This document shows, piece after piece, positions 1 through 15,995 of a stretch of DNA of 15,995 nt; the stretch's first letter is position 1, and each line of letters opens with the position of its first letter. Both the position numbers and the translations under genes were made by a program. The notes under the pieces were generated by a model. It worked only from the letters and a program-made list of their open reading frames with translations. It had not been told where the DNA came from and did not search any database. The stretch is from Calditrichia bacterium (GTDB lineage: Bacteria; Calditrichota; Calditrichia; RBG-13-44-9), in assembly GCA_037381445.1 (NCBI GenBank), contig JARRQT010000077.1, positions 1 to 15,995 of the forward strand, given 5' to 3'.

Positions 1-2
1 TT

Positions 3-121
<119 letters not shown>

Positions 122-492
122 ATTTTTTATTTTATTTACCCTCGGCTATTAGCCATCCCTTATCTCTAAAGTATCATTCCCATATATCGGCAGAAACCAA
201 ATTAATTAATTCTTAGTTCATTGGATTCGCAGAAATCCCGGTCATTGCTGTTCTGCGAACGGCAAAAACAAATCCCCATAAAATTCTGAATCCCGGAATT
301 CCGGACTGTCCCTCCAATAAAGCTTCGACACTATCCCCATCAATAATCCGCATGAAATAAATCCGGCAACCCCCTTTATTCCTTCAGATATGTAATTCCC
401 CTTTATTCACTTAGATTTTTTAAGAGATTATCTGCTTTTCACCCCAACCTTCTTTCATAAAAAATTCAATTCCAAATTTACCTTCCGCGGGA

Positions 493-520
493 TGTAACAA
501 TTTCAAAAAGGCCATCGTAA
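493..520 (+). promoter_or_regulatory. Putative ECF sigma-factor promoter for the efflux operon
   Basis: TGTAAC (493-498), 17-nt spacer, CGTAA (516-520). This matches the AAC/CGT core of SigW-like ECF promoters and lies about 125 nt upstream of the adaptor gene. Confidence 0.5.
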
Positions 521-645
521 AGTGTGGCATGGCTCTGATGTTACAAAGGGCTTCGCTGAACACAATTTGCAGAAATAATTTGCTTCAGAAATATATACAG
601 ATAATGATTTAAAGAATAATTCAGATCACGGAGGTTTAACCAGTC

Positions 646-1914
646 ATGTCAAAGAAAAAGATCATCATCTTATCGATTTCGATTATCATTGTCGCAGTCG
701 TCATCATTGGTATTACCCGGAAAGGCGACGGTTCAAAAGGTGTGGAAGTGACCACCGAGAAGGTAAAGAAGCAGAAAATAGTACAGACGGTGGCCGCCAC
801 CGGCCGGATCCAGCCAAAGACACAGGTGAAGATCAGTGCCGATGTGGGGGCCAAAATAACCCGACTGGAAGTGAAAGAAGGCGACTGGGTGGAAAAGGGG
901 GCTTTGCTGGTGGAACTGGACCGTGAAAGATTTCAGGCCATGCTGGAAAGTGCCGAGGCAAATCTGCGGTCTGTGGAAGCCAATGCCAAGCTGGCCAAGG
1001 AAAATATGGTAAAAGCGGAAAAGGACTACGACAGGACGAAGGAACTCTTCGACAGAAAGCTGGAATCGCAGGCCACGCTGGACCAGATTTACGCCGCATA
1101 CCAGGTGGAAAAGGCCCGCTATCAGTCGGTGCTGGAGCAGGTGGACCAGGCGGCTGCTGCATTAAAGCAGAGCCAGGATGACCTCTCCAAGACTACCATT
1201 TATTCTCCAATGGCCGGCACCATCAGTCAATTGAACAAAGAGGTGGGAGAAATTGCCCTCGGTTCCCAGTTTCAGGAAGATGTGATTATGGTAGTCTCAA
1301 ACATGGCAGGCATGGAAGCGCTGGTGGATGTGGATGAGAATGATATCGTGTCCGTGGCGATTGGCGACAGCGCGAAGATTGAAGTTGATGCCCTGCCCGA
1401 CAAGGTATTTTATGGCGAGGTTACGGAAATCGCTAATACCGCCAAGATCACAGGCAGCGGTTCGGCAGACCAGAAAACCGAGTTTGAAGTGAAAGTGGCG
1501 TTGTCGGATCCCGGCGAAGAATTACGGCCCGGAATGACCGCCAGCGCGGACATTATCACCGATACCAGGGAGAACGCTCTCGGCATTCCCATTCAGAGTG
1601 TGGCCGTTCGCACGCCCCAGCAATTGATCAGGACAGCCCCGAAGCCCAATGGCAGTGAAGCCATTGCCGATGATTCGGCCGCGCAAACTTTTGTTCCCGA
1701 CAAAGACGGATTTGTGGAAGTGGTTTTTGTGGTGAATAATGGTGTTGCTGAAGCTAAACAGGTAAAAACCGGTATCCAGAGTGATACCCACATCGAAATT
1801 AAAGAAGGGCTGGCGGAGCAGGATGAGATTGTTGTCGGGAATTACCGGGCCATCAGTCAGGATCTGCAAAATGGCTCGCCGGTCATTATCCGGAAGCCGA
1901 ATGCCCAAAAATAG
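646..1914 (+). CDS. Efflux transporter periplasmic adaptor subunit (MacA/HlyD family)
   Basis: N-terminal membrane anchor, lipoyl-like segments ([21 protein letters not shown]), a coiled-coil hairpin, VDENDI and LRPGMTA motifs. GGAGG RBS upstream. Confidence 0.93.
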
Positions 1915-1961
1915 CGATAACTAAACTGCTGAGAATATTGCATAAACGGAAGGATGACAAA

Positions 1962-2675
1962 ATGGCGCTTAAAGTAGAAAATCTTATGAAGACCTACAAA
2001 ATGGGCAGCGAAGAAGTGAATGCGCTGCGCGGAATTTCTCTTGACATCGATCCGGGTGAATATGTGGCTATCATGGGGCCGTCCGGTTCCGGAAAATCGA
2101 CCATGATGAATGTGCTGGGCTGTCTGGATTCTCCCACTTCCGGTTCCTATTTTCTGGAAGACGACGATGTGAGTGGATTAAATGATGACCAACTGGCCGA
2201 AATCAGGAATCAGAAAATCGGGTTTGTATTCCAGACATTTAACCTGCTGCCGCGGGCGGATGTTCTGCATAATGTGGAACTGCCCATGGTGTATGGCGGC
2301 GTTCATTCGGCCAAACGAAAAATAATGGCGGAAGATGCAATTAAAAAAGTTGGTTTGACTGACCGAATGAAACATAAGCCCAGTGAGCTGTCCGGCGGAC
2401 AGCGACAGAGAGTTGCCATTGCGCGGGCCCTGGTAAATAATCCTTCCATTATTCTCGCGGACGAACCCACCGGAAATCTTGACACGACTACCGGCGAGGA
2501 GATCATGGAAATTTTTGACCGACTTCATGAAGCCGGGAATACCATCATACTTGTGACCCATGAAACCGACATCGCCGACCATGCGGAGCGGGTCATTCGC
2601 CTGAAAGATGGTTTGGTAGAAAGCGATACGCTGAACGAAAAGAGCAGCCGGTATGATTATGTTTTTGCCAATTAG
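1962..2675 (+). CDS. ABC transporter ATP-binding protein (MacB/LolD family)
   Basis: Walker [10 protein letters not shown], signature [15 protein letters not shown], Walker B/D-loop [12 protein letters not shown]-loop VTHE. ATG at 1962 follows GGAAGGA and is preferred over the TTG at 1938. Confidence 0.96.
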
Positions 2676-2770
2676 TTCAAAAATCTCACGGTGAAATAAG
2701 GTCAACTGCAAAAAAATTATCATTTCTTTGAAAATTTGGGAATGTCTGCACTAACAAGATGGTATAGGGA

Positions 2771-4006
2771 ATGAGAACATTACATGAAAATATAGAGTCC
2801 TTCAAAATTGCCCTCGGAGCAATTAAAGCCAATAAGGCCAGAGGAATCCTCACCACCCTGGGAATTATCATCGGTATCGTGGCCGTGATTACTACCATGA
2901 CCGCGGCAAATGGGCTGGGAAATAAATTCAAGGAGAGTATTTCGGCCCTGGGATCGGATGTGCTCTATGTCTCCCGCATGCCCTGGGTTTTCACGGGTGA
3001 CTGGTTTGAACTGCGAAACCGGGAAAATCTGACACTGAAACAGTCGGAGAAACTGGAACGCCATTTGAAATCGGCGCTGGCGGTGAATCCCAGCACCCAC
3101 ACAAACCGCCACATCAAATACCGCTCTGAGGTACTTGAGAATATTGACATTATCGGCACCACTGAAAAACATATCATGGTTTCCACCTCCGTCCCGGAAT
3201 TCGGCCGCTTCCTGACCGCCAATGATATTCAATATAAGAAAAATGTGTGCGTCATCGGCTCCGAGATCAGGGAAAAGCTGTTCAAAAATGTCGACCCGCT
3301 GAATAAAAAAATGAAAATCGGGCGCTATGCCTACCGCGTGGTTGGCGTTATGGAGAAGCAGGGGAGCGCCAGCTTCTTTGGCGGCCCCAACTTCGACCGC
3401 CAGATTTTCATCCCCATCACCTCATTAATAAAATCTTTTGGCGGGAAGAATCGAGATTTCAATATTGTGGTGAAGGCACCCGGCCAGGAATCCATGGCTG
3501 ATTTTGAGTATGAACTGGTGGGCGAGATGCGAAAAATCCGCAAATTAAAGCCGGTTGAAAAGGACGATTTTTCCATCAACAAAATGGACACCCTCATGGG
3601 CGCCTACAACAATGTGATGGGCGTGGTGGTTCTGATCGGCCTGCTGATCACGGGGATCTCTCTTCTGGTTGGCGGCATCGGGGTGATGAATATCATGTTC
3701 GTGTCGGTAACGGAACGCACCCGTGAAATTGGCATCCGCAAAGCGATTGGAGCCAAGAAGCGGACCATCCTGATTCAATTTCTGTTCGAATCCTCCACAA
3801 TCTGTCTGTTGGGCGGACTGGCGGGTCTGGCGCTGGCATTCGGTGTAACCGCCCTGATCAATTCGCTGTTGATGCCCGCGAGCATCTCGATGCCCATCGT
3901 TGTCATCGCGCTCATCATTTCGGTTTTGGTGGGGGTGTGTTCCGGGATTATCCCTGCCTACCGGGCGGCGAGGCTTAATCCCATTGAGGCGCTGAGATAT
4001 GAATAG
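2771..4006 (+). CDS. ABC transporter permease 1 (MacB/FtsX family)
   Basis: N-terminal LTTLGIIIG transmembrane helix, large periplasmic domain, GGIGVMNIMFVSVTERTREIGIRKAIGA motif, C-terminal PIEALRYE. Confidence 0.95.
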   Translation: MRTLHENIESFKIALGAIKANKARGILTTLGIIIGIVAVITTMTAANGLGNKFKESISALGSDVLYVSRMPWVFTGDWFELRNRENLTLKQSEKLERHLKSALAVNPSTHTNRHIKYRSEVLENIDIIGTTEKHIMVSTSVPEFGRFLTANDIQYKKNVCVIGSEIREKLFKNVDPLNKKMKIGRYAYRVVGVMEKQGSASFFGGPNFDRQIFIPITSLIKSFGGKNRDFNIVVKAPGQESMADFEYELVGEMRKIRKLKPVEKDDFSINKMDTLMGAYNNVMGVVVLIGLLITGISLLVGGIGVMNIMFVSVTERTREIGIRKAIGAKKRTILIQFLFESSTICLLGGLAGLALAFGVTALINSLLMPASISMPIVVIALIISVLVGVCSGIIPAYRAARLNPIEALRYE

Positions 4007-4044
4007 GCAGAACAATTTTTTCGATTATTCGCGAGGGATACAAT

Positions 4045-5295
4045 ATGGGATTCATTGAAGCATTCAAAATGGCGCATACTGCCATCTGGAACCATAAACT
4101 CAGATCGTTTCTGACCCTGCTGGGCATCATTGCGGGAGTATCTTCCATCATTGCCGTGATGACCGGGATCTCGGTAATCCAAAGTACTATCGAAAAGGAA
4201 TTGAGTGTTCTGGGAACCACTACCTTTCAGGCCCAGAAATGGCCGGCCGGCGGCGGATTCGGGAATAATGTGGATTGGCGAAAAATTCAGCAACGCAGAC
4301 CCCTGACGGTGGAAAATGCCAATGCTATCCGGGAAAAAGTAAAGACCGTGGATCTGGTGGGCGCCGAATTGTGGGATTTCGGACACATCGCTAAGTATAA
4401 AAAAGAATCGACCAACCAGAATCTCACCATTTGCGGCGGGACACCGGAGTATCCGGACAACAATACCCACTATATTCATCTGGGACGCAATCTGAGCAAT
4501 GAAGACATCAAGATTGGGCGCAGCGTGGTGGTAATCGGTAATGCCGTTGCGGAAAAGCTTTTTCCTTTTGTGGATCCGGTTCAGAAAACCATCAAAATTG
4601 ATGGCAGGAAGTTTATCGTGGTCGGTGTTTTTGAAGAGAAGAAATCAGCGTTGGGCGGGAATTTTGATAATTACCTGCTGATGCCCATCACCAAGTTCCA
4701 GAGAATTTATGGCGCGTATGATCAGCGTGGGCGGGAGCGGTCCGTCAACATTACGGTCCGGGCGAAATCGCCGGAGCTGCTGCGGGACGCCATTGAAGAA
4801 GTCCGGGGCGTTCTGAGAATGGAACGGAATGTCAATCCGCGGGATGAGGACGATTTTGAAATTTTTACCAACGACAGTCAGATCAAGACTTTTAATAATA
4901 CAACCGCCGGGATAAAAATGGGCGCTTTCGTGATCGGAATTGTGGCGCTCATTGTGGCGGGTATCGGCATCATGAACATTATGCTGGTCTCCGTCACGGA
5001 GCGAACCAAAGAGATTGGCATCCGCAAATCGTTGGGAGCCAAGCGAAAGAATATTTTGGCGCAATTCCTTCTGGAAGCCATCATTCTCTGCAATATTGGC
5101 GGTACTCTGGGCGTGATGGTTGGTTTTGGCCTGGGGAATATTGTGACGATTTTTACCGGATTTGCGATCAATGTTCCCCTGGGATGGGCCATTGGCGGTC
5201 TGTTATTCTGTACCGCTGTGGGATTGACATTCGGCCTCTGGCCGGCAATTACCGCTTCACGGCTCGATCCCATCGAAGCGCTTCGATATGAATAA
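4045..5295 (+). CDS. ABC transporter permease 2 (MacB/FtsX family)
   Basis: RSFLTLLGII, GIGIMNIMLVSVTERTKEIGIRKSLGA and PIEALRYE motifs. Paralog of the upstream permease. Confidence 0.95.
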   Translation: MGFIEAFKMAHTAIWNHKLRSFLTLLGIIAGVSSIIAVMTGISVIQSTIEKELSVLGTTTFQAQKWPAGGGFGNNVDWRKIQQRRPLTVENANAIREKVKTVDLVGAELWDFGHIAKYKKESTNQNLTICGGTPEYPDNNTHYIHLGRNLSNEDIKIGRSVVVIGNAVAEKLFPFVDPVQKTIKIDGRKFIVVGVFEEKKSALGGNFDNYLLMPITKFQRIYGAYDQRGRERSVNITVRAKSPELLRDAIEEVRGVLRMERNVNPRDEDDFEIFTNDSQIKTFNNTTAGIKMGAFVIGIVALIVAGIGIMNIMLVSVTERTKEIGIRKSLGAKRKNILAQFLLEAIILCNIGGTLGVMVGFGLGNIVTIFTGFAINVPLGWAIGGLLFCTAVGLTFGLWPAITASRLDPIEALRYE

Positions 5296-5426
5296 CTGAA
5301 TGAAGGGCTGCCGAGTGACCGATTCATGCCGGCGCCTTATCAGCCTGATTTTTATTGGGGGTGAATAAGAAATCCGGTAGATTTTCAAAAAAGCAGTAAA
5401 TCGTAAAATCAGGAGTAATTGTTTTC

Positions 5427-5819
5427 ATGGAAAGAAAAAATGTTGCATCGAATGCAAAATGGGAGCCTGTGGTGGGATATTCCCGCGCCGTGCGGATGGG
5501 GCCTTTCATCTATGTGTCCGGCACCACGGCAACCAATGGTGATAATCATGTTGTGGGCAGCGGTGACGCTTATGCCCAGACCGTGCAGACCATTCACAAT
5601 ATTGAAAAAGCGCTCTATAAGGCGGGGGCTACGCTTCAGGATGTGGTGCGCACCCGGATTTATCTAAAGAATATGGATGACTGGCAGAAGATCGCCAGGG
5701 CGCATGCCGAATTCTTTGGCAATATCCGCCCGGCAACCAGCATGGTTGAGGTCACCAGGCTGATTGACCCCGATATGCTGGTGGAAATTGAAGCGGAGGC
5801 AATCCTGAAGGAACTGTAG
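5427..5819 (+). CDS. RidA/YjgF/YER057c/UK114 family protein
   Basis: [35 protein letters not shown] and LVEIEAEA motifs. AGGAG upstream. Confidence 0.93.
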
Positions 5820-6012
5820 CTTAATTCAAGGCATGTTCAGGTTTCCTGATAAATTGTAGATTTTATCTATTCTTTCCCTGAGAAGCATAGCATGGGAGAT
5901 TGATCAATTTTGGTCGTCACCTGCAGGTGTCATAAAAGTCACTGCCCCCCTGTAAACAGTCCTTTTTATTTATGCGCATAGAAATAATATGACATATTTG
6001 GCCATAAACTAT

Positions 6013-6055
6013 TGCTTATTTTAATAATTGTGCATAATATTGTTTAAAATAAGCA
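6013..6055. promoter_or_regulatory. Perfect 12-bp inverted repeat abutting the protease RBS
   Basis: TGCTTATTTTAA (6013-6024) and TTAAAATAAGCA (6044-6055) with a 19-nt spacer. The last base is the first A of AGGAGG (6055-6060). Confidence 0.5.
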
Positions 6056-6065
6056 GGAGGACACT

Positions 6066-7067
6066 ATGGCAACAGATTTAAATCAGGCCAGAGAATTATT
6101 AAAAAATGTCAGGCACGAGCTGCTAAGCAAACCCAATGTGGTGGCGACTGGTGTGGGCTATAAAATGTCCGCCGGGAAACCTACACAGGAATTGGCACTG
6201 ATATGTTCGGTTGAAATAAAGAAAGCAAAACAATCCCTGACCAGCCGGGAGCTGATTCCGGCCAGCATTCAGGGGGTTTCAACCGATGTCTATCCCTCCG
6301 GAATAATTTCGGCGCAGCAGCCGCCTACGGGCCGGTTTCGTCCGGCGCCCGGGGGCGTCAGTATCGGCCAGTATCAGATTACCGCCGGGACACTGGGATG
6401 CCTGGTAAAGAAAAACAACAAGCTGTACATCCTGTCCAATAATCATGTTCTGGCGAACAGCAATGATGCTTCGATCAATGATCCTATACTGCAGCCAGGG
6501 CCATATGACGGCGGAACGGTCAGCAACGATAAGATCGCGGTCTTGAGCGAATTTATCCCAATCTCTTTTGATGGCGGCGGAAGTTCCTGTCCCATCGGAA
6601 ACGCTGCCGCGGATCTTTTGAACAGCATCGCAGCGCTCATCGGAAGCAATACCCGCCTGCAAACCGGGGTGAAGATGGCTGCTGACAATCTGGTGGATTG
6701 CGCCATTGCGGAGCCCGTGAATCCTAATGACGTGATAAACGAAATTCTGCAGATCGGGACCATCTCCGGCGTTGGGGAAGGAACCCTGGGAATGTCGATA
6801 AAAAAGAGCGGGCGAACCACCGGCCTGACCACAGGCACCATTCAACAGGTAGATGTAACGGCGGTGGTGAGTTACGGGGCCAATAAAACGGCTACCTTTG
6901 TTGATCAACTGCTGGCAGGAAGCATGAGCCAGGGCGGAGACAGCGGCTCTGCGGTGCTGAACGACCAGAACCAGATCGTTGGTTTGCTTTTCGCGGGAAG
7001 CAATACCACCACTATCATCAACCGCATTCAAAATGTATTCCAGGCGCTGAATGTTACGCTGCCCTGA
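6066..7067 (+). CDS. Trypsin-like (PA clan) serine protease, Nal1-like, with N-terminal accessory domain and no signal peptide
   Basis: Catalytic triad motifs LSNNHV (H127), VDCAIA (D211) and GGDSGS (S293). Family motifs GGVSIG, AGTLGCLV, ILQPG.YDGG and KSGRTTGLT.G. Strong AGGAGG RBS. Confidence 0.88.
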   Translation: MATDLNQARELLKNVRHELLSKPNVVATGVGYKMSAGKPTQELALICSVEIKKAKQSLTSRELIPASIQGVSTDVYPSGIISAQQPPTGRFRPAPGGVSIGQYQITAGTLGCLVKKNNKLYILSNNHVLANSNDASINDPILQPGPYDGGTVSNDKIAVLSEFIPISFDGGGSSCPIGNAAADLLNSIAALIGSNTRLQTGVKMAADNLVDCAIAEPVNPNDVINEILQIGTISGVGEGTLGMSIKKSGRTTGLTTGTIQQVDVTAVVSYGANKTATFVDQLLAGSMSQGGDSGSAVLNDQNQIVGLLFAGSNTTTIINRIQNVFQALNVTLP

Positions 7068-7115
7068 ACAAAGGATAAGCAAATTCATAAACTATTATAA
7101 AAAGGACGCGGCAAG

Positions 7116-7343
7116 ATGCCGGTATCGATGGAAAAAATTAAAGAAGTGAAACAAAATTATCAACAATCGTGGATGTCGATAAAAGGCGTCGTGGGTGTAG
7201 GTATCGGGCCCACCTCGGACGGGAGCGTGGGCCTGATTATTTCCGTAAAGGAAAACGCCGCGAAAATCAGGAAACGGATACCGGTCAAAATCGAGGAAGT
7301 GACCGTGGATATTCAGGAAACCGGAGAATTTAAAGCGCTATAA
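7116..7343 (+). CDS. Small protein homologous to the N-terminal domain of the upstream protease
   Basis: 75 aa with an AAGGA RBS. VVGVGIG..SDG..LIISV..IPVKIEEVTVDI..TG aligns by eye with the protease's VVATGVG..SAG..LICSV..IPASIQGVSTDV..SG. Confidence 0.8.
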   Translation: MPVSMEKIKEVKQNYQQSWMSIKGVVGVGIGPTSDGSVGLIISVKENAAKIRKRIPVKIEEVTVDIQETGEFKAL

Positions 7344-7417
7344 CGGGACAGTATGAATTTTATTATTCCGGAACTGATTGGGAATTTTAAACTCGGACCT
7401 GTTGAATTTGCCGACAA

Positions 7418-7804
7418 ATGAAACGGACAATATCGTTAATTCTATTCTTCGCCCTTTTTCAAATGGCATGTGAGAAGCATGCCGAAAAGGGGAGATACGT
7501 TTACATGACCGCCCCGGTGGATTCAATTAGAGTAACTGCCGCAGAAAGCAATGCCCTGTCGTTAATTTGTTATGTGACAGTGCCGGACCCCTGCTGGGAA
7601 CTTACCGGGGCCGATGTTAAACAGGCAAGCCGGGACTTTTCGGTAAAGGTCCGGGCCAGAAGAGAGAAATCCAAAATATGCATCGCCATCCCCGCCCGGC
7701 TGGAAATTCCGGTCCGGCTCCGGGTCCAGCAGGCGGGAGATTATGAACTCCGCTTCTGGAGGTCGGACACTTCCAGGCTGGATACCACCCTGATGATTCA
7801 GTAA
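7418..7804 (+). CDS. Hypothetical lipoprotein, predicted beta-rich
   Basis: Signal-like MKRTISLILFFALFQMA-C. The mature part has alternating hydrophobic strands and a possible disulfide pair (PDPCW / KICIA). Confidence 0.7.
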   Translation: MKRTISLILFFALFQMACEKHAEKGRYVYMTAPVDSIRVTAAESNALSLICYVTVPDPCWELTGADVKQASRDFSVKVRARREKSKICIAIPARLEIPVRLRVQQAGDYELRFWRSDTSRLDTTLMIQ

Positions 7805-7886
7805 TTTTGCAGATCCATAAAAATGAACCAGGATTTGATTTCTCTCCTGAAATCCCCCATATTTCAGGAAAAGGGTATCAGGGTTC

Positions 7887-8246
7887 ATGAAAGATAAACA
7901 AAAACCCGGGCTTGTCTATTCCACTGAAAGCGGCCGGATGTGCCCCGATTGCGGCAAACCAATAAACGAATGCATCTGCTCGCAGAAATCCGGCGGCCGT
8001 ACCGGAGATGGAATCCTCCGTATCCGGAGGGAAGTGAAGGGCAGGCATGGCAAGACCGCCACCACGATTTCGGGCCTCCCGCTGGAGGCCGGGGCGCTGA
8101 ACGATCTGGCCAGCGAACTCAAACAGAAATGCGGAACAGGCGGTTCGGTGAAGGACGGCGTTATTGTCATTCAGGGGGATCAGCGGGATAAACTCCTCAC
8201 AATTCTAAAAGAGAAGGAATTTACCGTTAAACTGGCGGGGGGATAG
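7887..8246 (+). CDS. yciH: Translation initiation factor SUI1 / YciH
   Basis: LVYSTE, N-terminal CPDC..CIC, RREVKGRHGKTATTISG and LKQKCGTGGSVKDGVIVIQGD motifs, C-terminal KLAGG. Confidence 0.93.
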   Translation: MKDKQKPGLVYSTESGRMCPDCGKPINECICSQKSGGRTGDGILRIRREVKGRHGKTATTISGLPLEAGALNDLASELKQKCGTGGSVKDGVIVIQGDQRDKLLTILKEKEFTVKLAGG

Positions 8247-8345
8247 CCTTTGCGCGAAGGATTGATCAACAAAAAACTCTGTGGAGTATTATGATTTTAT
8301 ACAAGAGCTTTTTGGCAATGGAATAACCAAACTCAACAGTGAAAG

Positions 8346-8744
8346 ATGGCAGAATATAAAATGAAAAAAATTGTCGGAAAGGGTGAGCCTTTTGAACCCG
8401 GCGATAATATACGGTTAGCCGCGGATGATTTCTGGCGGTTCAACCAGGGCGCCTCGGACCGTTTTCAGTTATTTATCGCCGAAGAAAATGAAAGACTGGC
8501 GAGGCTAGAGGAGAGGTTCGATTCAAAAACAGCCTACAACTATCACCGGCTGGCGCCGGAATTCGAAGAAAATGAGTGGCAGTTTTTTTACCGGGATTTG
8601 CGGGACGAGCTTTTCAAAAAATATGATTACATCCTGGTCACGCGGCATAGCCAGATCTACGGAGTGAAGGGAAATATCTCCACCCTGATTGCGCGTCGGG
8701 AAGGGGCTTACGAAGCCGCCAGGGATATCATCAGCGGGGATTGA
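8346..8744 (+). CDS. Hypothetical protein (132 aa, soluble)
   Basis: Co-oriented ORF filling the gap, with protein-like composition. No family recognised. Alternative start at 8361. Confidence 0.7.
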   Translation: MAEYKMKKIVGKGEPFEPGDNIRLAADDFWRFNQGASDRFQLFIAEENERLARLEERFDSKTAYNYHRLAPEFEENEWQFFYRDLRDELFKKYDYILVTRHSQIYGVKGNISTLIARREGAYEAARDIISGD

Positions 8745-8981
8745 TATTTTTCCGGGTTCTGTGACAACCGTGCTTCCCAATTGTTTGATCATCATTTCCC
8801 GGATAAAGTATCGGATAAATTTTTCTGCGGAAATCAGTCCATTAATAGCTTATCGGATTGTGATCATCGCAAAAGCAGCCTTAAATTATTTTTATTTCGG
8901 CGGTGCAAAAGAATGCTGTTGCGGGATCCGGTGCTGGAATTTATCGGAACGGGACCAGCGAACAGGAGAAAGCGGATTTAA

Positions 8982-9287
8982 ATGATAAAGAATATTCTGA
9001 TTGCGGTTGTCATCATTTATGCCTTTTGGGAACTGCTGGAGCATGTTATTCTTCCGCTTTTTGGAGCAGGATTGGGAAAGAAGCGAAAACCCGTCAGCGG
9101 TGCGGAAGGAATGATCGGAAGAACGGTAGAGGTCCGGGAATGGAAGGGCACAAAGGGCACTGTCTTTATCAACGGCGAATTCTGGAAGGCGGAGAGCGAT
9201 CATACGTTCTCTCCGGGAGACAAAGCCGTCATCAGAGAACTGAACGGATTGAAATTAAAAATTTCCCCGGTGACTGAGGAGCGGTAA
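8982..9287 (+). CDS. NfeD-like C-terminal (OB-fold) membrane protein
   Basis: N-terminal hydrophobic helix, then SGAEGMIG..G.VFINGEFWKAES..GDKAVI...GLKLKI, typical of NfeD C-terminal domains. AGGAG upstream. Confidence 0.85.
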   Translation: MIKNILIAVVIIYAFWELLEHVILPLFGAGLGKKRKPVSGAEGMIGRTVEVREWKGTKGTVFINGEFWKAESDHTFSPGDKAVIRELNGLKLKISPVTEER

Positions 9288-9391
9288 ATCCTTTTCTGTA
9301 ACACGCGGGAAATCCGTTGCCTTCTGAAGTGTGCCTTAAAATTGAAACAAATTTATGGATATTGTATGAAAATCAAAATGAGGAATCTGGC

Positions 9392-9949
9392 ATGAAAATT
9401 TACGGTTACTGTTTGTTTCTGGCAGCCATATTGGTTCTCCTGGCGGGATGTCAGCAGCAAGAAGAGGCAGTACAAAAGCAGGGTTCGGTTACTGCAAAAA
9501 TCGCTGAACCGGATTCATTATTATTACTTGCCGAAATAATCCCGTTGGGAAGCGGCTATGCTTCAGTGAAAAAAGAAATTCCTGCGCTGTCCGAACTTAA
9601 AGATCGGGGCTATGACAGGATGGCCCAATTTCAAACGTCGGTTTTAAATCAGGTTGCCAGGGTGCAGTTTCTCTTCACCACCGCCGACAGTCTCTACAAC
9701 ATCATGTTCACCCTCACCAAAAACCTGGATTGTTCTGTGGCCGATTCACTTTACGGGAAACTACAGGATTTTTACGGATCAAAATTCGGCAAATATGAAG
9801 AAGAGGAAGAGCCTGATCCCGGCGCCTCCCCTTACCCTATCTTTCGCGTCAGCCGGTGGTACACCGGCAAGTTCGAGGTGGTGGTGGGAAATAATGAATA
9901 TGATGAATTCTGTATCCTCTCCTGGGGATTTCAGCGCAGTTCGCGCTGA
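9392..9949 (+). CDS. Hypothetical lipoprotein
   Basis: ATG at 9392 after GAGGA gives MKIYGYCLFLAAILVLLAG-C with a canonical LAGC lipobox. Confidence 0.75.
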   Translation: MKIYGYCLFLAAILVLLAGCQQQEEAVQKQGSVTAKIAEPDSLLLLAEIIPLGSGYASVKKEIPALSELKDRGYDRMAQFQTSVLNQVARVQFLFTTADSLYNIMFTLTKNLDCSVADSLYGKLQDFYGSKFGKYEEEEEPDPGASPYPIFRVSRWYTGKFEVVVGNNEYDEFCILSWGFQRSSR

Positions 9950-10125
9950 GAGGAAATTGCATCAAAATTGGTTAAAACGAAATAATATCTGTTATTGACC
10001 AAATGACGAAATAGTGGTTTGAAACCTCTGGCGGCTATTTTCATACAACATACATATGAGATGAAATCCTCACAGTGAAGTGTGCTTTATCAGCCTGAAC
10101 AAAACCAGAAGGAGGAGGAGTCATC

Positions 10126-10338
10126 ATGCCGGATAGTATCTATAAAATCATCGAGGTTGTTGGCACCAGCACAGTTTCCTGGGAAGAGGCGGCGAAAAAA
10201 GCCGTGGATAAGGCGGGCAAAACCCTGGAGGATCTGCGGATCGCGGAAGTCACGGCCCAGGATCTGAAACTGGAAAATAACAAAGTGGTTGCATATCGCA
10301 CCCGCCTGCGGCTCTCTTTTAAATTCCGCGAGGGATAG
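10126..10338 (+). CDS. Dodecin family protein (flavin/nucleotide-binding)
   Basis: 70 aa with YKIIEVVGTS..SWEEAAKKAV..A.KTL.DLRIAEV and YR.RL.LSFK motifs. Very strong GGAGGAGG RBS. Confidence 0.93.
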   Translation: MPDSIYKIIEVVGTSTVSWEEAAKKAVDKAGKTLEDLRIAEVTAQDLKLENNKVVAYRTRLRLSFKFREG

Positions 10339-10528
10339 GGCCATTTTGTTTCTTGAATGAAAATGTGTAAAATGGAAGGTATGCCGCTCGACGGAAGCAG
10401 GTAAACTGCGTGCAGCGGAAGACAGCTTCATGGTAAAAAGATGTCTAATCTGCATTTTGGAAGGCAGAAAAAGAGCGCAGTATCTGCTAACAATAAATTG
10501 AATCAAATTGACCAAAAGGGAGAATGGA

Positions 10529-11002
10529 ATGGCAACTCAGGATTCAGATGACAGAGTTAATGTAGGCAGACTGGAACGTTTGCTCTCCATACTGGGCGGC
10601 GGATCGCTGCTGATATATGCATTCAGGCGCGGCTCATTTCGCAGCCTGCTGGCGGCTTTTCTGGGCGCGGAATTTATTTATCGCGGCGCCAAGGGCCACT
10701 GTGTGTTATATGACCTGCTGGATGTCAGCACAGCGGAAACAGAGGAAATCATAAAAGAAAAGGTACAGGAACTTCGTGCAAAGCCTGCGAATGCAGAGCA
10801 GCAGCCGCCGGAAAAGGCAGCAAGGGAGGCAGGGGCAAGTCTGCAGCCGCAGGCGAAAACGGCAGCCAAAAAGTCCGGATCCCCAAAATATGAAGAAATG
10901 AGCAAAGAGGAGCTGTATGAAAAAGCCAAGGAACTCGACATCGCCGGCCGGTCAAAAATGAGCAAGGAAGCGCTCATCAAAGCCCTGCGGGCCAAATCCT
11001 AG
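10529..11002 (+). CDS. DUF2892 (YgaP-like) membrane domain fused to a C-terminal Rho-N-like helical domain
   Basis: NVG..ER..S..GG..L....RG..GHC.LY..L.VST (DUF2892), an Ala/Lys/Gln/Pro-rich linker, then YEEMSKEELYEKAKELDIAGRSKMSKEALIKAL. ATG at 10529 follows GGGAG. Confidence 0.8.
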   Translation: MATQDSDDRVNVGRLERLLSILGGGSLLIYAFRRGSFRSLLAAFLGAEFIYRGAKGHCVLYDLLDVSTAETEEIIKEKVQELRAKPANAEQQPPEKAAREAGASLQPQAKTAAKKSGSPKYEEMSKEELYEKAKELDIAGRSKMSKEALIKALRAKS

Positions 11003-11049
11003 GAAACATGCGATGATTATGAATTTCTATTTGTCATCCAATGATGCGG

Positions 11050-11080
11050 AAAAAAAGAAAGCCCCCGATTTCGGGAGCTT
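11050..11080 (-). terminator. Intrinsic terminator with minus-strand polarity (possibly bidirectional)
   Basis: The minus strand reads AAGCUCCCG-AAAU-CGGGGGCUU-UCUUUUUUU: a 9-bp stem with one G-U pair, followed by a U tract. Confidence 0.65.
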
Positions 11081-11838
11081 GCCTATGTGAAAAGCTCCAT
11101 ATTTAAATAGAGATTTTCTTTCCTTTTCTCAACCCATGCCTGATACGGCACGTGTCATGCACTGTTCCCGAAAAAAGAAATTTGTCTTGGATTTCTTAAA
11201 TGTTTCAAAATTCCGAAACAATTAGAAAACTTATCTCATCTGCGGCAGGAGATCTCAATATATTTTAAGCGGGATGCGCTGAGATCTTCTTCAAAGATTA
11301 GTATGACGGATTCTGTTTCATTATGCGTGTTAGAAAAATATCAAGTTGTTGCTGATCCGGCGCAGTCCATTGCCCGGAACAAATCGTTGCGCTTCGTGTT
11401 TTTTATCTGTGCGGGCAATCTTGTCTGCTTGAATTGTTGATTATCGTTCATTAATAATGGAAGCAGCAGGGAGTTAAACCGGTGCTTTTCTTTTTATAAT
11501 TTCGTGGTTTGTGCCTGTTTGATTTCTTTCTGGAGGGAAGCATGCGGTCTGATATCTGGACCGGTTATTCGAAATTAATGATCCTGTGAAAGCAAAAAAT
11601 CGCTGATTTTTGAAATTGTTTAAAGCGGAAAATTATTGCATTTTCTGGAAATAACAGGCGCAGAGAGTATAAGACACTTTGCTGATATGGATCTTTTGCA
11701 GGGTGCGGATGATGGCCGGTATCCGGCAGGTCAGCATCACTCAAAATTCATTTATATTTGCGACGGCATAAATACCGATTTGATATCCGGCAGGCGTATT
11801 TCCTGTTGAATATGACTATAAGGAGAAGGAGCTTGTAA

Positions 11839-13116
11839 ATGGAGACAAAACTTAAATTGTATAATTCCCGGTCCGGCGCGGTGGAAGTCTTTGAACCCAA
11901 AGGTGACCCGGTGACCATGTATGTCTGCGGAATAACGCCCTACGACACCACGCATCTGGGCCACATTTTTACCTATGCTTCCGCCGATGTGCTGATTCGT
12001 TTTCTCCGTTACCAGGGATTCAGGGTAAAATATGTTCAGAATCTTACCGATATAGACGATCCCATCCTGCGGGAAGCAAAGAAACAAAATGAAGACTGGA
12101 AGGAGTTGGGCAACCGCTGGACGATCCGGTTCATCGAAGACATGAGACTTTTAAATGTAAAGGCGCCGGATATATTCCCCAGAGCGACGGATGTCATCTC
12201 CGGCATCATCGCGATAACTAAGAAATTGCTGAAAAATGGGTGTGCCTACCAGGCCGAGGGAAATGTTTATTTCGAAATCAGGAAATGGAAGGACTTCGGG
12301 AAAATGAGCGGAATCCCCCGCGAGCAAATGCTCTCCGTCGCCAATCAACGGGGGAATCACCCGGATGATCCCAATAAACGGGATCCGCTGGATTTCCCGC
12401 TGTGGCAGGCGCAGCAGGCCGGCGAGCCCGCCTGGGAAAGTCCCTGGGGACCGGGCCGGCCCGGCTGGCATATCGAGTGCTCCACCATGTCCAGCCAGTT
12501 TCTGGGGGACACCATCGATATCCACGGCGGCGGCTCCGACCTCATTTTTCCCCATCACGAGGGGGAAATTGCCCAGTCCGAATGCGCTACCGGCAGACAC
12601 CCTTTCGTTCGCTACTGGTTTCATACCGCGATGGTCCATTACCGGGGCAAAAAGATCAGCAAATCCCTCGGCAACCTGATCATGGTGCGGGACGTTTTGA
12701 AAAACTGCTCACCGGACGGATTGCGCCTTTATCTGGCCAATCATAAATACCGGGACAAATGGGAATATAACGAAGCCGAACTGGCGGACGCCGAACGGAT
12801 GCTGGAAAAATGGAAAAAAGCTCTTTTCGTAACAGGCGGGCCCCGCACGGCTGCGGCACTGGAGGCAGAGAACCAGCGGACGGCTTTCCTCGAGGCACTG
12901 GCAAATGATTTGAATACGCCTCTGGCTGTGCGGGAGCTGGACAAGCTGGCGGAGCGTGTTTTGTCAGCAAACGAGAGAAGGGAAAACCTGAAGAATGCCC
13001 AGCGGATACTGGCGGAGATGACCGTGCTGCTGGGTCTGCACCTGGATTCACCGGAAGCGGAAAATGATGTTTTGGCCGGCTGGGACGATCATCTGAGAAA
13101 ATTTCAGAAGCAGTGA
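11839..13116 (+). CDS. Cysteine--tRNA ligase family protein (class I), MshC-like paralog lacking the anticodon-binding domain
   Basis: MYVCGITPYDTTHLGH, YVQNLTDIDDP, GRPGWHIECS, GGGSDLIFPHH, KISKSLGN and ALANDLNTP motifs. The protein ends shortly after LLGLHL. AAGGAG RBS. Confidence 0.88.
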   Translation: METKLKLYNSRSGAVEVFEPKGDPVTMYVCGITPYDTTHLGHIFTYASADVLIRFLRYQGFRVKYVQNLTDIDDPILREAKKQNEDWKELGNRWTIRFIEDMRLLNVKAPDIFPRATDVISGIIAITKKLLKNGCAYQAEGNVYFEIRKWKDFGKMSGIPREQMLSVANQRGNHPDDPNKRDPLDFPLWQAQQAGEPAWESPWGPGRPGWHIECSTMSSQFLGDTIDIHGGGSDLIFPHHEGEIAQSECATGRHPFVRYWFHTAMVHYRGKKISKSLGNLIMVRDVLKNCSPDGLRLYLANHKYRDKWEYNEAELADAERMLEKWKKALFVTGGPRTAAALEAENQRTAFLEALANDLNTPLAVRELDKLAERVLSANERRENLKNAQRILAEMTVLLGLHLDSPEAENDVLAGWDDHLRKFQKQ

Positions 13117-13259
13117 AATCAAGCGGAATTATGAGCTTGCAGTGCTTTATTTACCGGCTTCATATACGGGAAATAAATGCAAAATCGCGGATACCAATGT
13201 GCTATCCAAGGCAGAATATTTTTTCAGAAAGGCCGGATCAGCGAAAAGGAGCATGGGAC

Positions 13260-13547
13260 ATGAACAGAATGCCTGAGGTTTACGATAATGCTGCTGTTGT
13301 AAAAAAGGAGCTTAATGCTGCAGAGGAGGCGGTGATATATGCGTTTCCCCGGGCTGCAGCCTGGCTGGTTGATCAAGATTATGAACCGGAATTAACGGCC
13401 GGCGAGGCGGTTAAAATCTCCAAATGGGAGAGTGAGCTGATTATCGTTCCGGTCAACTGGGAACGGGACCCTGAAACCTGGCAATGGGCATGGCGGGAAG
13501 TGGGAAAACCGTACCGCAGAGAGATTGAAGCAGGCGGACAGATATAG
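13260..13547 (+). CDS. Hypothetical protein (95 aa, Trp-rich C-terminus)
   Basis: ATG at 13260 follows AAGGAG (13246-13251). The upstream extension in the ORF track looks non-coding. Confidence 0.65.
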   Translation: MNRMPEVYDNAAVVKKELNAAEEAVIYAFPRAAAWLVDQDYEPELTAGEAVKISKWESELIIVPVNWERDPETWQWAWREVGKPYRREIEAGGQI

Positions 13548-13866
13548 CCCTGGTTCAATCAGATTTTTGCCGCAGGAATCAATTCATCTTAATTAGAAGA
13601 TGAACTGTCTTGCCAATTCTGATTTTTGATTCCGCTCCCGACCCCGCATCCCGGGCGTGAAACTCACAGAATTGCCGCCAGTATAAACTGACAGTCATAA
13701 CTGGCTTTGCGCAATATTTTGGGAAAGGAGCATATCAGCGGGCGGAATCTTTTCCCGATATATCTTTTGGACATTATGTGCCGGTCTCTATATTTTCTTC
13801 CTGGGCTGTGATCTCAAAATAGCCGTGGAGAGAGGCGCGGGCTTTCAACAGAAAGGTAAGAATTTT

Positions 13867-14292
13867 ATGAAATACAAAGTTCAAAAAAGTGACAGGGAAT
13901 GGAAAGAGCAGCTTACCGAGGAGCAGTACCGCATCACCCGGAAGAAGGGAACGGAACCTGCTTTTTCGGGAAAATATAATGATTTTAAAGAAAAGGGCGT
14001 GTACAGGTGTGTCTGCTGCGGAAATGAACTCTTCAGTTCGGAAACCAAATACAAATCCGGTTCCGGCTGGCCCAGTTTCTATGCTCCAATCACCGGAGAC
14101 CATATCGAAGAAGAGGAGGACAACAGTTTCTTAATGAAACGGACCGAGGTTATCTGCAGCAGGTGCGGCGCCCATCTGGGGCATGTTTTTGATGACGGCC
14201 CGCGGCCCACCGGATTGCGCTACTGCATTAACTCCGCTGCGCTGCAATTTGAGGGTAAAAAAGAGAAGGATGAAATTAAGAAAGATGAATGA
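13867..14292 (+). CDS. msrB: Peptide-methionine (R)-S-oxide reductase MsrB
   Basis: [39 protein letters not shown], plus two Zn-binding CxxC motifs (CVCC, CSRC). ATG at 13867. Confidence 0.97.
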
Positions 14293-14401
14293 AGAAAATT
14301 CCAGACATTTTCTCAAATCGATTCTTAAAATTTTTATTCTGTGCGCCATTATCGGGATTTTCCTGTGGCAGATCAGTATGGGAATCTGCCCGGTGCCCTG
14401 A
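14285..14401 (+). CDS. Putative small single-pass membrane protein (38 aa)
   Basis: [38 protein letters not shown]. The start overlaps the msrB stop (ATGAATGA) and there is one clean hydrophobic helix. Confidence 0.55.
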
Positions 14402-14489
14402 TTCCTAGAAAGGGACGCATGGTGAATTCCGTTGGCGATACTTAAATTGACCGGAGCTGAATGGAATATACAGATGGGAGGTTATGTTC

Positions 14490-15235
14490 ATGACGCAGAC
14501 CATTAAGAGCACGGCTAAACTCAATAACGGAGTGGAAATCCCCCTTCTCGGTCTGGGAGTTTTCAAAGCTTCACCGGGCAGGGAAACCCGCGATGCGGTT
14601 TTATATGCATTGAAGGCCGGATACCGGCACATCGACACGGCCGCCATGTACGGAAACGAGCGGGATGTGGGAGAAGCGGTCCGGGAGAGCGGAATTCCCC
14701 GGGAAGAGGTCTTTATCACCACCAAATTATGGAACAGTGATCACGGATATGACCGCGCGCTCCGGGCCTTCCGGAAAAGCCTGGATAACCTGGGAATGGA
14801 TTACGTGGATTTGTATCTTATTCACTGGCCGGTGGAAGACCGGCGCGTGGAAACCTGGAATGCACTCTTTAAGCTCTGGGAAGATATAAAATGCATGGCC
14901 ATCTGGGTCAGCAATTTTACCATCGTCCATCTTGAAGAACTGCTCTCCCGTTCATCCGTGGTCCCGGCGATCAACCTGGTTGAATCCGGGGCCGAAGGCT
15001 GGATCACAAGACCATAACTTCCATTGCGCAGAAATATCATAAGACCGCACCTCAGGTCATGATCCGCTGGGCCCTGCAGCATAATATTGTGGTAATTCCC
15101 AAGTCTGTTCACCAGCAATATATTGAACAAAACGCCGATGTGTTCGATTTCAGTTTATCCGATGAGGACATGGCGAAACTGGATTCCCTCAATGAGGATT
15201 TCAGGGTGGCCTGGGATCCCAGTTCCATTCGTTGA
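14490..15235 (+). pseudogene. Aldo/keto reductase (AKR5 / 2,5-DKG reductase-like), disrupted by an internal deletion and frameshift near 14985
   Basis: 5' frame: GYRHIDTAAMYGNE, FITTKLWN, DLYLIHWP. After ..PAINLVE the homology resumes in a different frame at 14987: RGRRLDH..AQKYHKTAPQVMIRWALQH..VIPKS..NADVFDFSLSDEDM..AWDPSSIR, with TGA at 15233-15235. GGAGG RBS at 14477-14481. Confidence 0.85.
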
Positions 15236-15313
15236 TAAAATTGAAATGCAATATAGCGACGGCCTGAATAAATAAAATCAATCTATTTAGAATTGGAGAA
15301 AAAGGAGGAAAAT

Positions 15314-15995
15314 ATGATGAAACATCGCAAATTAGGCACACAGGGGCTGGAAGTATCTCTGATGGGTCTGGGCTGTATGGGAATGTCCGAATTTTATGGA
15401 ACCGGAGATGAGAAGGAGTCCATTGCCACCATCCATCGCGCTCTGGAACTGGGTATTACTTTTATTGATACCGCTGACATGTACGGACCGTTCACCAACG
15501 AGAAGCTGGTGGGGAAAGCGATTAGGGACCGCCGGGATAAGGTGGTGCTGGCCACCAAATTCGGCATTCAGCGGGGGGACAATCCCTCAAAACGGCAGAT
15601 CAACGGCAGTCCGGAGTATGTGCATTCGGCCTGTGATGCCTCGCTGCAGCGTCTGGGCATCGATCATATTGACCTGTATTACCAGCACCGGGTGGACCCC
15701 GATGTTCCCATTGAGGAAACCGTGGGGGCCATGGCCGAACTGGTCAAGGCAGGCAAAGTACGCTACCTGGGATTGTCGGAAGCGGGGCCGCAGACCATAA
15801 AGCGGGCCCACAAAGTGCATCCCATTTCTGCCCTTCAAACCGAATATTCATTATGGAGCCGGGATCCCGAAGATGAAATCCTGCCCACGGTGCGGGAGCT
15901 GGGGATTGGTTTCGTGGCCTACAGTCCGCTGGGCCGCGGCTTTTTGACCGGCAGATTCAAGACCATTGATGATTTCGAAGAAAATGATTACCGGC
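15314..15995 (+). CDS. Aldo/keto reductase (AKR13-like), truncated by the window end
   Basis: Not in the ORF track because there is no stop in the window. Own translation: [92 protein letters not shown] at 15303-15308. Confidence 0.95.

Follow-up and report, generated by a model that had tools for sequence, protein, structure and literature searches.

A NAL1-type serine protease gene of a Calditrichia bacterium is paired with a free copy of its N-terminal domain, a likely propeptide-like inhibitor

Results

The protease gene and its small neighbour

The window analysed here is a stretch of 15,995 nt from a Calditrichia bacterium (assembly GCA_037381445.1, contig JARRQT010000077.1, positions 1 to 15,995, forward strand). 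Two of its ORFs, both on the plus strand and separated by 48 nt, are the subject of this report: one of 333 aa (6066-7067) and one of 75 aa (7116-7343). The larger is preceded by a Shine-Dalgarno sequence, AGGAGG, at 6055-6060 and encodes a NAL1-type serine protease without a signal peptide, assigned by NAL1 alignment, Foldseek and PHROG. It consists of a cis N-terminal domain (residues 1-84, 6066-6317), a homolog of the ATP-binding domain of NAL1 as judged by NAL1 alignment, conservation counts and a Pfam NAL1_N match below the cut-off, and a chymotrypsin-fold catalytic domain (residues 93-333, 6342-7064), recognised by structural alignment and triad conservation. Within the latter lie the triad codons for H127 (6444-6446), D211 (6696-6698) and S293 (6942-6944), and a beta-hairpin (residues 260-271, 6843-6878) whose pairing with strand 26-32 of the small protein was predicted at the interface of a complex model. 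A preliminary description of the locus had reported an intact triad and no signal peptide. Both observations held: the triad was invariant in 48 aligned homologs, and the N-domain begins directly at the start.

The small gene has its own ribosome-binding site, as had been described, with AAGGA at 7102-7106, 9 nt before the ATG. A 5-bp stem-loop (7109-7121) lies over this ATG and could tie translation of the small gene to upstream events. On the basis of profile, models and conservation, the product (7116-7343) is a free copy of the N-terminal domain, of a short type lacking the ATP-site hairpin and the lysine loop, and a predicted inhibitor. On the strength of the complex model and of the end position shared by the family, its C-terminal tail, T69-L75 (7320-7340), is predicted to occupy the active site of the protease, L75 being the putative P1 residue in an inferred register. 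The protease had a single match in the genome. The judgement that the small gene is not a broken recent duplicate was borne out: the two genes had no DNA match beyond short seeds, and tblastn detected no protease trace in 7344-9500.

Elsewhere in the window, an efflux-type operon was recognised by eye at 646-5295 (membrane fusion protein, ABC ATPase and two permeases), followed by genes for RidA (5427-5819), YciH, an NfeD-like protein, dodecin and a YgaP/Rho_N protein. The ORF at 7418-7804 encodes a predicted lipoprotein of 128 aa that resembles YB1M beta-sandwich clusters, and an aldo-keto-reductase-like gene at 14484-15235 is apparently split, by eye, into ORFs of 177 aa and 58 aa.

Fold and family of the protease

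The protease model (pLDDT 84.9) superposed over residues 1-333 on rice NAL1 89-444 with Z 25.7 and rmsd 4.0 Å for 291 residues. The NAL1-type assignment was also obtained with Foldseek (E 1.5e-14) and through PHROG 20754, annotated 'protease' (E 4e-76). Streptomyces proteases and alpha-lytic protease matched residues 93/94-333 with Z 18-20 and rmsd of about 2 Å, covering the catalytic part only, and NAL1 ranked ahead of them. In rice NAL1 (PDB 8PMI, 8PMM, 7Y77, 8HAS) the ATP-binding and serine protease domains align over the whole bacterial protein; NAL1 likewise lacks a signal peptide, and equivalents of its R120, K139 and D164/D166 are kept in the bacterial enzyme. Identity is however only about 20%, and the first bacterial residue pairs with residue 89 of NAL1, the region 1-88 with its hexamer-building strand being missing. 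Scores fell below the Pfam gathering thresholds for NAL1_N (16.3 versus 27 bits, E 0.0083) and Nal1_C (19.5 versus 26.1 bits), and a precomputed PF25608 match was present on some close homologs. Because it falls below these cut-offs and lacks NAL1 residues 1-88, the enzyme is classed as NAL1-type in architecture and not as a full member of the NAL1 family. Peptidase_S64 was matched only weakly (E 0.066).

At least 8000 clusters make up the protease family, all scored candidates having passed E 0.001, and the named matches fell in Calditrichota, KSB1 and Bacteroidota. Cellular loci had the HDS triad in 110 of 116 cases and viral loci in 62 of 65; most of the exceptions are cut by contig ends. 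None of 120 cytoplasmic-type proteins had a signal-like N-terminus. The junction between the N-domain and the catalytic domain reads G79-I-I-S-A83-Q84 in the window; across the family, residue 84 was L, F or Q in 143 of 168 proteins and was preceded by A83 in 140. This conserved A83-[L/F/Q]84, placed ahead of a variable linker modelled with low confidence, hints at self-cleavage of the cis domain and is suggestive only. A helical insertion at 6561-6680 (residues about 166-205) contains invariant C175, L185, N186, G193 and S194 and is possibly an oligomer or membrane contact; matches from the exported protease subfamily skip the stretch of about 166-205.

The small protein is a homolog of the protease N-domain

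The colinearity of the 75-aa ORF with protease residues about 1-84, first noticed by eye, was confirmed by BLASTP (26% identity over 1-83, E 2e-4). The local alignment score of 72 was reached by none of 5000 shuffles, whose maximum was 54, and the profile of the small family matched that of the protease N-domain with an HHalign probability of 97.4% (E 1.5e-11, 77 columns). Both models have the element order helix-strand-strand-helix-strand. The small ORF does stop before the catalytic domain, as had been proposed, its last residue being the equivalent of protease residue 84, the predicted P1 of the junction.

In Foldseek the small-protein model (pLDDT 79.6) matched alpha-lytic Pro chains in all six leading rows, but at weak E values (0.014-0.039). 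In a wide structure search, alpha-lytic Pro (Z 5.2) and NAL1 89-175 (Z 4.4, rmsd 2.3 Å) were found at values in the range that the tool calls common, with a designed protein ranked first. Small Atlas clusters labelled NAL1_N matched at TM 0.77-0.79. No Pfam, NCBIfam or PHROG family and no PDB sequence match was obtained for the small protein, and across 94 members of its family no family was matched by more than two. At 50% identity, with E up to 0.001, the family comprised 1277 clusters, a number obtained with a five-sequence profile that can include longer proteins carrying the domain; 91 of the best 150 of these clusters were 66-82 aa long.

In a FastTree tree of 245 distinct domains, built from a short alignment and rooted at the midpoint, 87 of 88 free copies lay on one side together with only 5 cis domains (support 0.91). 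As the free copies group apart from the cis domains, an old duplication is suggested. Repeated independent duplication as the general origin was considered and is unsupported by this tree, in which supports are nevertheless low. The L116/L117 locus looks like a separate local duplication.

The pair recurs across cellular genomes

For a pair we required a free domain with a score of 20 bits or more, encoded within 500 nt of the protease and on its strand; evaluable loci were those with such a pair or with 600 nt of sequence on each flank. By this measure the pair recurs: of 103 evaluable cellular loci, 93 have the free domain next to the protease and 10 have no adjacent copy, in a set of related loci biased towards close homologs. 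The partner lay downstream of the protease in 78 pairs and upstream in 15. The 36 loci from genomes, the window's own included, gave 28 pairs, 6 loci without one and 2 truncated loci; the best 80 of 556 metagenome loci gave 65 pairs (50 downstream, 15 upstream), 4 without and 11 truncated. The protease was encoded in 29 of 61 related genomes and the same 29 carried a free copy, which was matched in none of the 32 whole genomes of relatives without the protease. The two genes form a real, old and widespread module.

In three genomes of one family (L193, L197, L208) the small gene is kept though apart from the protease; it lies upstream of a repeat-protein gene and, in L193, is preceded by a transposase-like ORF. 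No third conserved gene was found across 183 clustered loci. The 128-aa lipoprotein and YciH of the window had no homolog in the other loci, and RidA had one weak, distant homolog. PADLOC gave no meaningful match, returning one fragment (E 0.0085 over 25 residues) and nothing for the small protein.

A predicted ATP site is kept in cytoplasmic enzymes and absent from short free copies

Alignment of the protease profile with the ATP loops of NAL1 paired K33 with R120, K52 with K139 and D74 with D164 (or with D166 after a two-residue shift, the register being uncertain). Equivalents of R122 and K123 were not conserved in the bacterial protease. The window's cis domain retains K33, G37, T40, K52, L58 and D74. 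Among cellular cis domains K33, K52 and D74 were retained in 99, 102 and 103 of 105, and among viral cis domains in 42, 51 and 49 of 52. The ATP-site hairpin motif was found in none of 65 short free copies (the window's included), in which the hairpin tip and the loop around L58 are deleted and K52 and D74 are unconserved; 23 long free copies retained the ATP-site residues.

The hairpin motif was present in 116 of 120 cytoplasmic proteases versus 0 of 115 exported-type proteases with a detected N-domain. The exported-type proteases are mostly lipoproteins, 107 with a signal-like start and 5 of 120 without a detected N-domain. ATP is absent outside the cytoplasm, and loss of the site from exported proteases is for this reason the pattern that would be expected if these residues bind ATP; because two clades were compared, the contrast amounts to about one evolutionary event.

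The exported lipoprotein subfamily (P0281-P0400) has an N-domain without ATP-site motifs, and at the four of its loci that were examined (L035, L036, L209, L212) a small partner is also found downstream.

Nearly all viral records lack a detectable free copy

The protease is encoded at 66 viral loci, where its neighbours include terminase, tail and replication genes and its position is not fixed; the neighbour scan took in 71 proteins, neighbouring or fused, at 25 of these loci. One phage-encoded homolog, L118, shows 57% identity. A free copy was found in none of 58 evaluable viral loci (7 others were truncated and 1 was dropped for want of a catalytic match). Broader cis and free profiles recovered only split or distant protease N-domains in the viral loci (L157, L172, L183). 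Fifty of the 66 were searched as whole viral records, many of these being fragments, and 49 had no detectable partner. Record G109 held two weak partner candidates (23.4 and 16.9 bits). A pattern scan of the viral contigs for the small family, which is an insensitive method, gave 0 among 600 candidate stretches. The enzyme apparently needs no co-encoded partner, unless the host's is borrowed.

ORF 25-326 of the Aeropyrum coil-shaped virus (L213:2477-3457), annotated as a putative serine protease, is a member of the family with a cis N-domain, and no partner was found in the 5.9 kb of this virus that were examined. Three phage proteins of 650-1600 aa (L162:4001-8875, L163:3995-7021, L167:3998-5941) begin with a NAL1-type protease followed by long uncharacterised regions.

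Some relatives encode partners with a signal peptide and a second start

The small protein encoded in the window lacks a signal peptide. Of the partners in the 93 pairs, 84 could be anchored, and a signal-like extension was present in 26 (22 non-redundant). A basic N-region was seen in 26 of 26 signal-bearing partners and a lipobox pattern in 7. An internal ATG or GTG was kept 19-22 codons before the anchor in 21 of the 22, the same position at which signal-less partners start, versus only 2-7 of 22 in four flanking windows. Anti-Shine-Dalgarno pairing at the internal start averaged -4.4 to -4.9 kcal/mol, versus about -1 to -2 kcal/mol upstream, and a codon position inside the domain also reached -5.2 kcal/mol. 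The upstream start overlapped the TGA stop of the protease by 4 nt in 25 of 26 cases, an overlap that arises easily once the frame is set, the frame being identical in all 25. The cognate proteases of the 26 comprised 23 signal-less enzymes with K52 and D74, 2 cut by contig ends and 1 of the exported type. These dual starts suggest that the relatives make both exported and cytoplasmic forms of the partner. We also considered whether the protease might hitch-hike through Tat together with the exported partner; this was rejected, since on inspection by eye the signal peptides lack a typical twin-arginine motif.

A predicted complex with the tail in the active site

Modelling the protease and small protein together gave a predicted interface with a score of 0.91, the best of 3 controls scoring 0.00. 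The runs agreed in at least 98% of contacts, with a partner pLDDT of 92. Of 157 solved complexes 116 attained the mark, as did 2 of 215 mismatched pairs, rates that are roughly applicable here, our own alignments having been used. In the model, small-protein strand 26-32 pairs with protease hairpin 260-271, and the tail 69-75 lies among H127, D211, 288-293 and 308-315, with contacts from residues 72-74 to protease residues 268-269, 310 and 312. In alpha-lytic protease, the hairpin and Pro form a five-stranded sheet, with the Pro junction running across the active site, in the excerpted account of PMC2829044; the predicted hairpin-sheet pairing and active-site tail of the small protein match this pose. 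Because alpha-lytic Pro complexes (3PRO, 4PRO) are solved, the high score may reflect likeness to them and to NAL1, not binding.

Independently of the complex model, 66 of 89 partners ended exactly at the position of protease residue 84, and 75 of 89 had L, Q or F at the junction position; 1-19 extra residues past the predicted P1 were present in 23. The free copy therefore looks like an already-cleaved propeptide. No correlation was evident between the last residue of a partner and residue 84 of its cognate protease.

Discussion

The small gene at this locus is a free, conserved copy of the protease N-domain, and its product is likely to serve as a dedicated, ATP-independent, propeptide-like inhibitor of the protease. 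The two-gene module of protease and regulator put forward in the preliminary description is supported by profile and fold similarity, by recurrence and by the predicted interface, and of the roles it named for the free domain (to inhibit, to chaperone or to co-assemble) inhibition fits best. In the mechanism that we propose, the small protein would dock on the beta-hairpin of the catalytic domain, its C-terminal tail plugging the active site as modelled. The protease's own N-domain would bind ATP-Mg as that of NAL1 does, might need it to fold or to keep its position, and could exist either as a self-cleaved prodomain still bound or as an uncleaved trimer contact. Needing no ATP, the free copy would restrain an enzyme that had lost or displaced its own domain. 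If the cis domain stays attached, the free copy could still block the active site, and it might also compete with the trimer contacts. In relatives that also make the inhibitor with a signal peptide, this form would guard the ATP-free periplasm. Counting against the proposal are the weakness of the fold match to Pro, the role of the homologous domain in NAL1, the 23 free copies with retained ATP-site residues, the 23 partners that extend past the predicted P1, the 10 evaluable cellular loci where no partner is adjacent and, for the argument from viruses, the chance that phage enzymes use a partner encoded by the host.

The closest architectural relative is rice NAL1. In the excerpts available of PMC12012508, residues 89-172 are the ATP-binding domain, in which ATP-Mg is held by R120, R122, K123, K139 and D166; the ATP is not hydrolysed and stabilises the domain (K139A aggregates), and the domain touches the protease domain of the neighbouring subunit in the trimer. 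It remains attached and uncleaved and is required for activity, and these excerpts describe no free copy. The homologous domain of NAL1, being attached, in contact within the trimer and needed for activity, is therefore no inhibitor there. Alpha-lytic protease (2PRO, 3PRO, 4PRO) and Streptomyces S1E proteases share the catalytic fold, and the small protein weakly resembles the alpha-lytic Pro. They are however secreted and have a single cis Pro, whereas the enzyme of the window lacks a signal peptide, a predicted ATP site lies in its cis domain, and the second copy is a separate gene.

Other proteases are restrained by small adjacent genes. Spi of Streptococcus pyogenes is called 'a propeptide analogue' encoded next to SpeB (PMC2873492, in excerpt) and is thought to hold back prematurely active protease in the cytoplasm (PMC2873492, PMC3462683). 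In SpeB-Spi, the staphostatins and Bacteroides Bfi/Bti, the small inhibitor gene is transcriptionally coupled to the protease, and Bti proteins occur in periplasmic or lipoprotein forms (excerpts of PMC2873492, PMC3462683). Spi is like the bacterial pair in its adjacent gene and its homology to the cognate pro-domain, but the SpeB, staphostatin and Bfi systems involve secreted cysteine proteases of the unrelated papain fold, with no ATP site. The statement that no bacterial system of this form had been characterised does not stand for the general form, for which SpeB-Spi is a precedent. For the NAL1-type pair itself, a literature search largely outside the subscription journals returned nothing on such proteases of bacteria or phages or on their partner. 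Among eukaryotes, free propeptide-like inhibitors are represented by I9, I29 and crammer.

The dual-start partners have a parallel in the immunity proteins of X-T4SS, for which a signal peptide or lipobox and an internal start with its own ribosome-binding site are described, with proposed periplasmic and cytosolic forms (PMC6536674, in excerpt). X-Tfi is like them in its design of signal peptide plus internal start codon, but the sequences are unrelated, and no secretion system or delivery domain was seen with the bacterial pair.

A broader reading is possible, although we hold it to be doubtful. The protease would be an ATP-gated zymogen, its cis domain an ATP sensor that holds the enzyme shut at the high ATP of the cytoplasm and releases it on a collapse of ATP or on exit from the cytoplasm, through infection, lysis or energy failure. 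The free copy, its ATP site shed, would be an always-on immunity protein, in some lineages both cytoplasmic and exported from one dual-start gene, and directed against the cell's own, neighbours' or phages' enzyme. Phages would carry the protease unguarded as a tool of host takeover, and the ATP-binding domain of NAL1 would be a repurposed prodomain of alpha-lytic type.

It is unlikely that the small protein is instead an activating or structural partner, that is, a trans-acting foldase or a second subunit capping the oligomer in place of the missing NAL1 N-terminal strand. Such a foldase would have the precedent of alpha-lytic Pro, which has the same predicted binding mode and catalyses folding (PMC2829044, excerpted), and such a subunit would make up for the absence of NAL1 1-88, which build the active hexamer. 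Natural fusions with the domain at the protease C-terminus (P0226, P0250, P0340, P0377) are in keeping with a partner role, and co-retention in 29 of 29 genomes with an obligatory partner of any kind. The predicted pose however blocks the active site, and a copy in cis is already part of the enzyme. The triad is intact in viral enzymes (62 of 65) that go without a free copy (49 of 50 records had no partner), which argues against an obligate subunit or foldase. An exported partner form beside a signal-less enzyme makes little sense for a subunit and fits immunity better. A further candidate fusion, P0221, reads as a frameshifted join and was excluded from the fusion count.

Inhibition by the small protein is compatible with an added role in a switch of the Ssy5 or toxin-antitoxin type, in which a labile inhibitor or sacrificial substrate is lost under stress or infection and frees a protease that arrests or kills the cell; we regard this role as improbable. 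Yeast Ssy5 (peptidase S64) is an analogue, an intracellular, alpha-lytic-like protease held by its cleaved prodomain until the latter is degraded (excerpt of PMC6761765), yet its prodomain is large and removed by the proteasome, and there is no free partner gene. A two-gene layout with no conserved third gene and the patchy spread (29 of 61 relatives) would suit such a switch. The neighbours in the window are however housekeeping-type genes, and 60-75% identity of the protease across phyla would be slow for an arms-race gene. With no meaningful PADLOC match and no conserved third gene, the defence role suggested in the preliminary description found no support in the gene context. That a partial duplication left the small ORF behind as a functionless relic has a negligible chance of being right: the ORF is homologous to part of its neighbour, and a separate local duplication is apparent at L116/L117, but its frame is intact, its end point conserved and its adjacency kept across phyla, 87 of 88 free copies lie apart from nearly all cis domains, and there is no DNA-level similarity to the neighbour.

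If the inhibitor assignment is true, the small protein founds a new inhibitor family for a large unannotated protease family of bacteria and of bacterial and archaeal viruses, and is the first free propeptide-like inhibitor found for chymotrypsin-fold bacterial proteases, within the literature searched. The comparison links the unexplained non-catalytic ATP site of NAL1 to a prodomain-like module, and the role of the site has a natural test, since cytoplasmic enzymes that carry it coexist with free copies and exported enzymes that do not. The pair may further provide a simple bacterial model of a rice yield gene, as well as a candidate scaffold for NAL1 inhibitors.

The small domain also occurs in other arrangements. 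Nine proteins without a protease domain (P0128, P0148, P0190, P0205, P0210, P0224, P0225, P0236, P0257) have 2-4 tandem copies and a signal peptide, and P0259 has two copies ahead of a protease domain. In L197:982-1725 (P0146) a single open frame joins a response-regulator-like domain to the small domain that follows it, and a Met occupies the place where the small protein usually starts.
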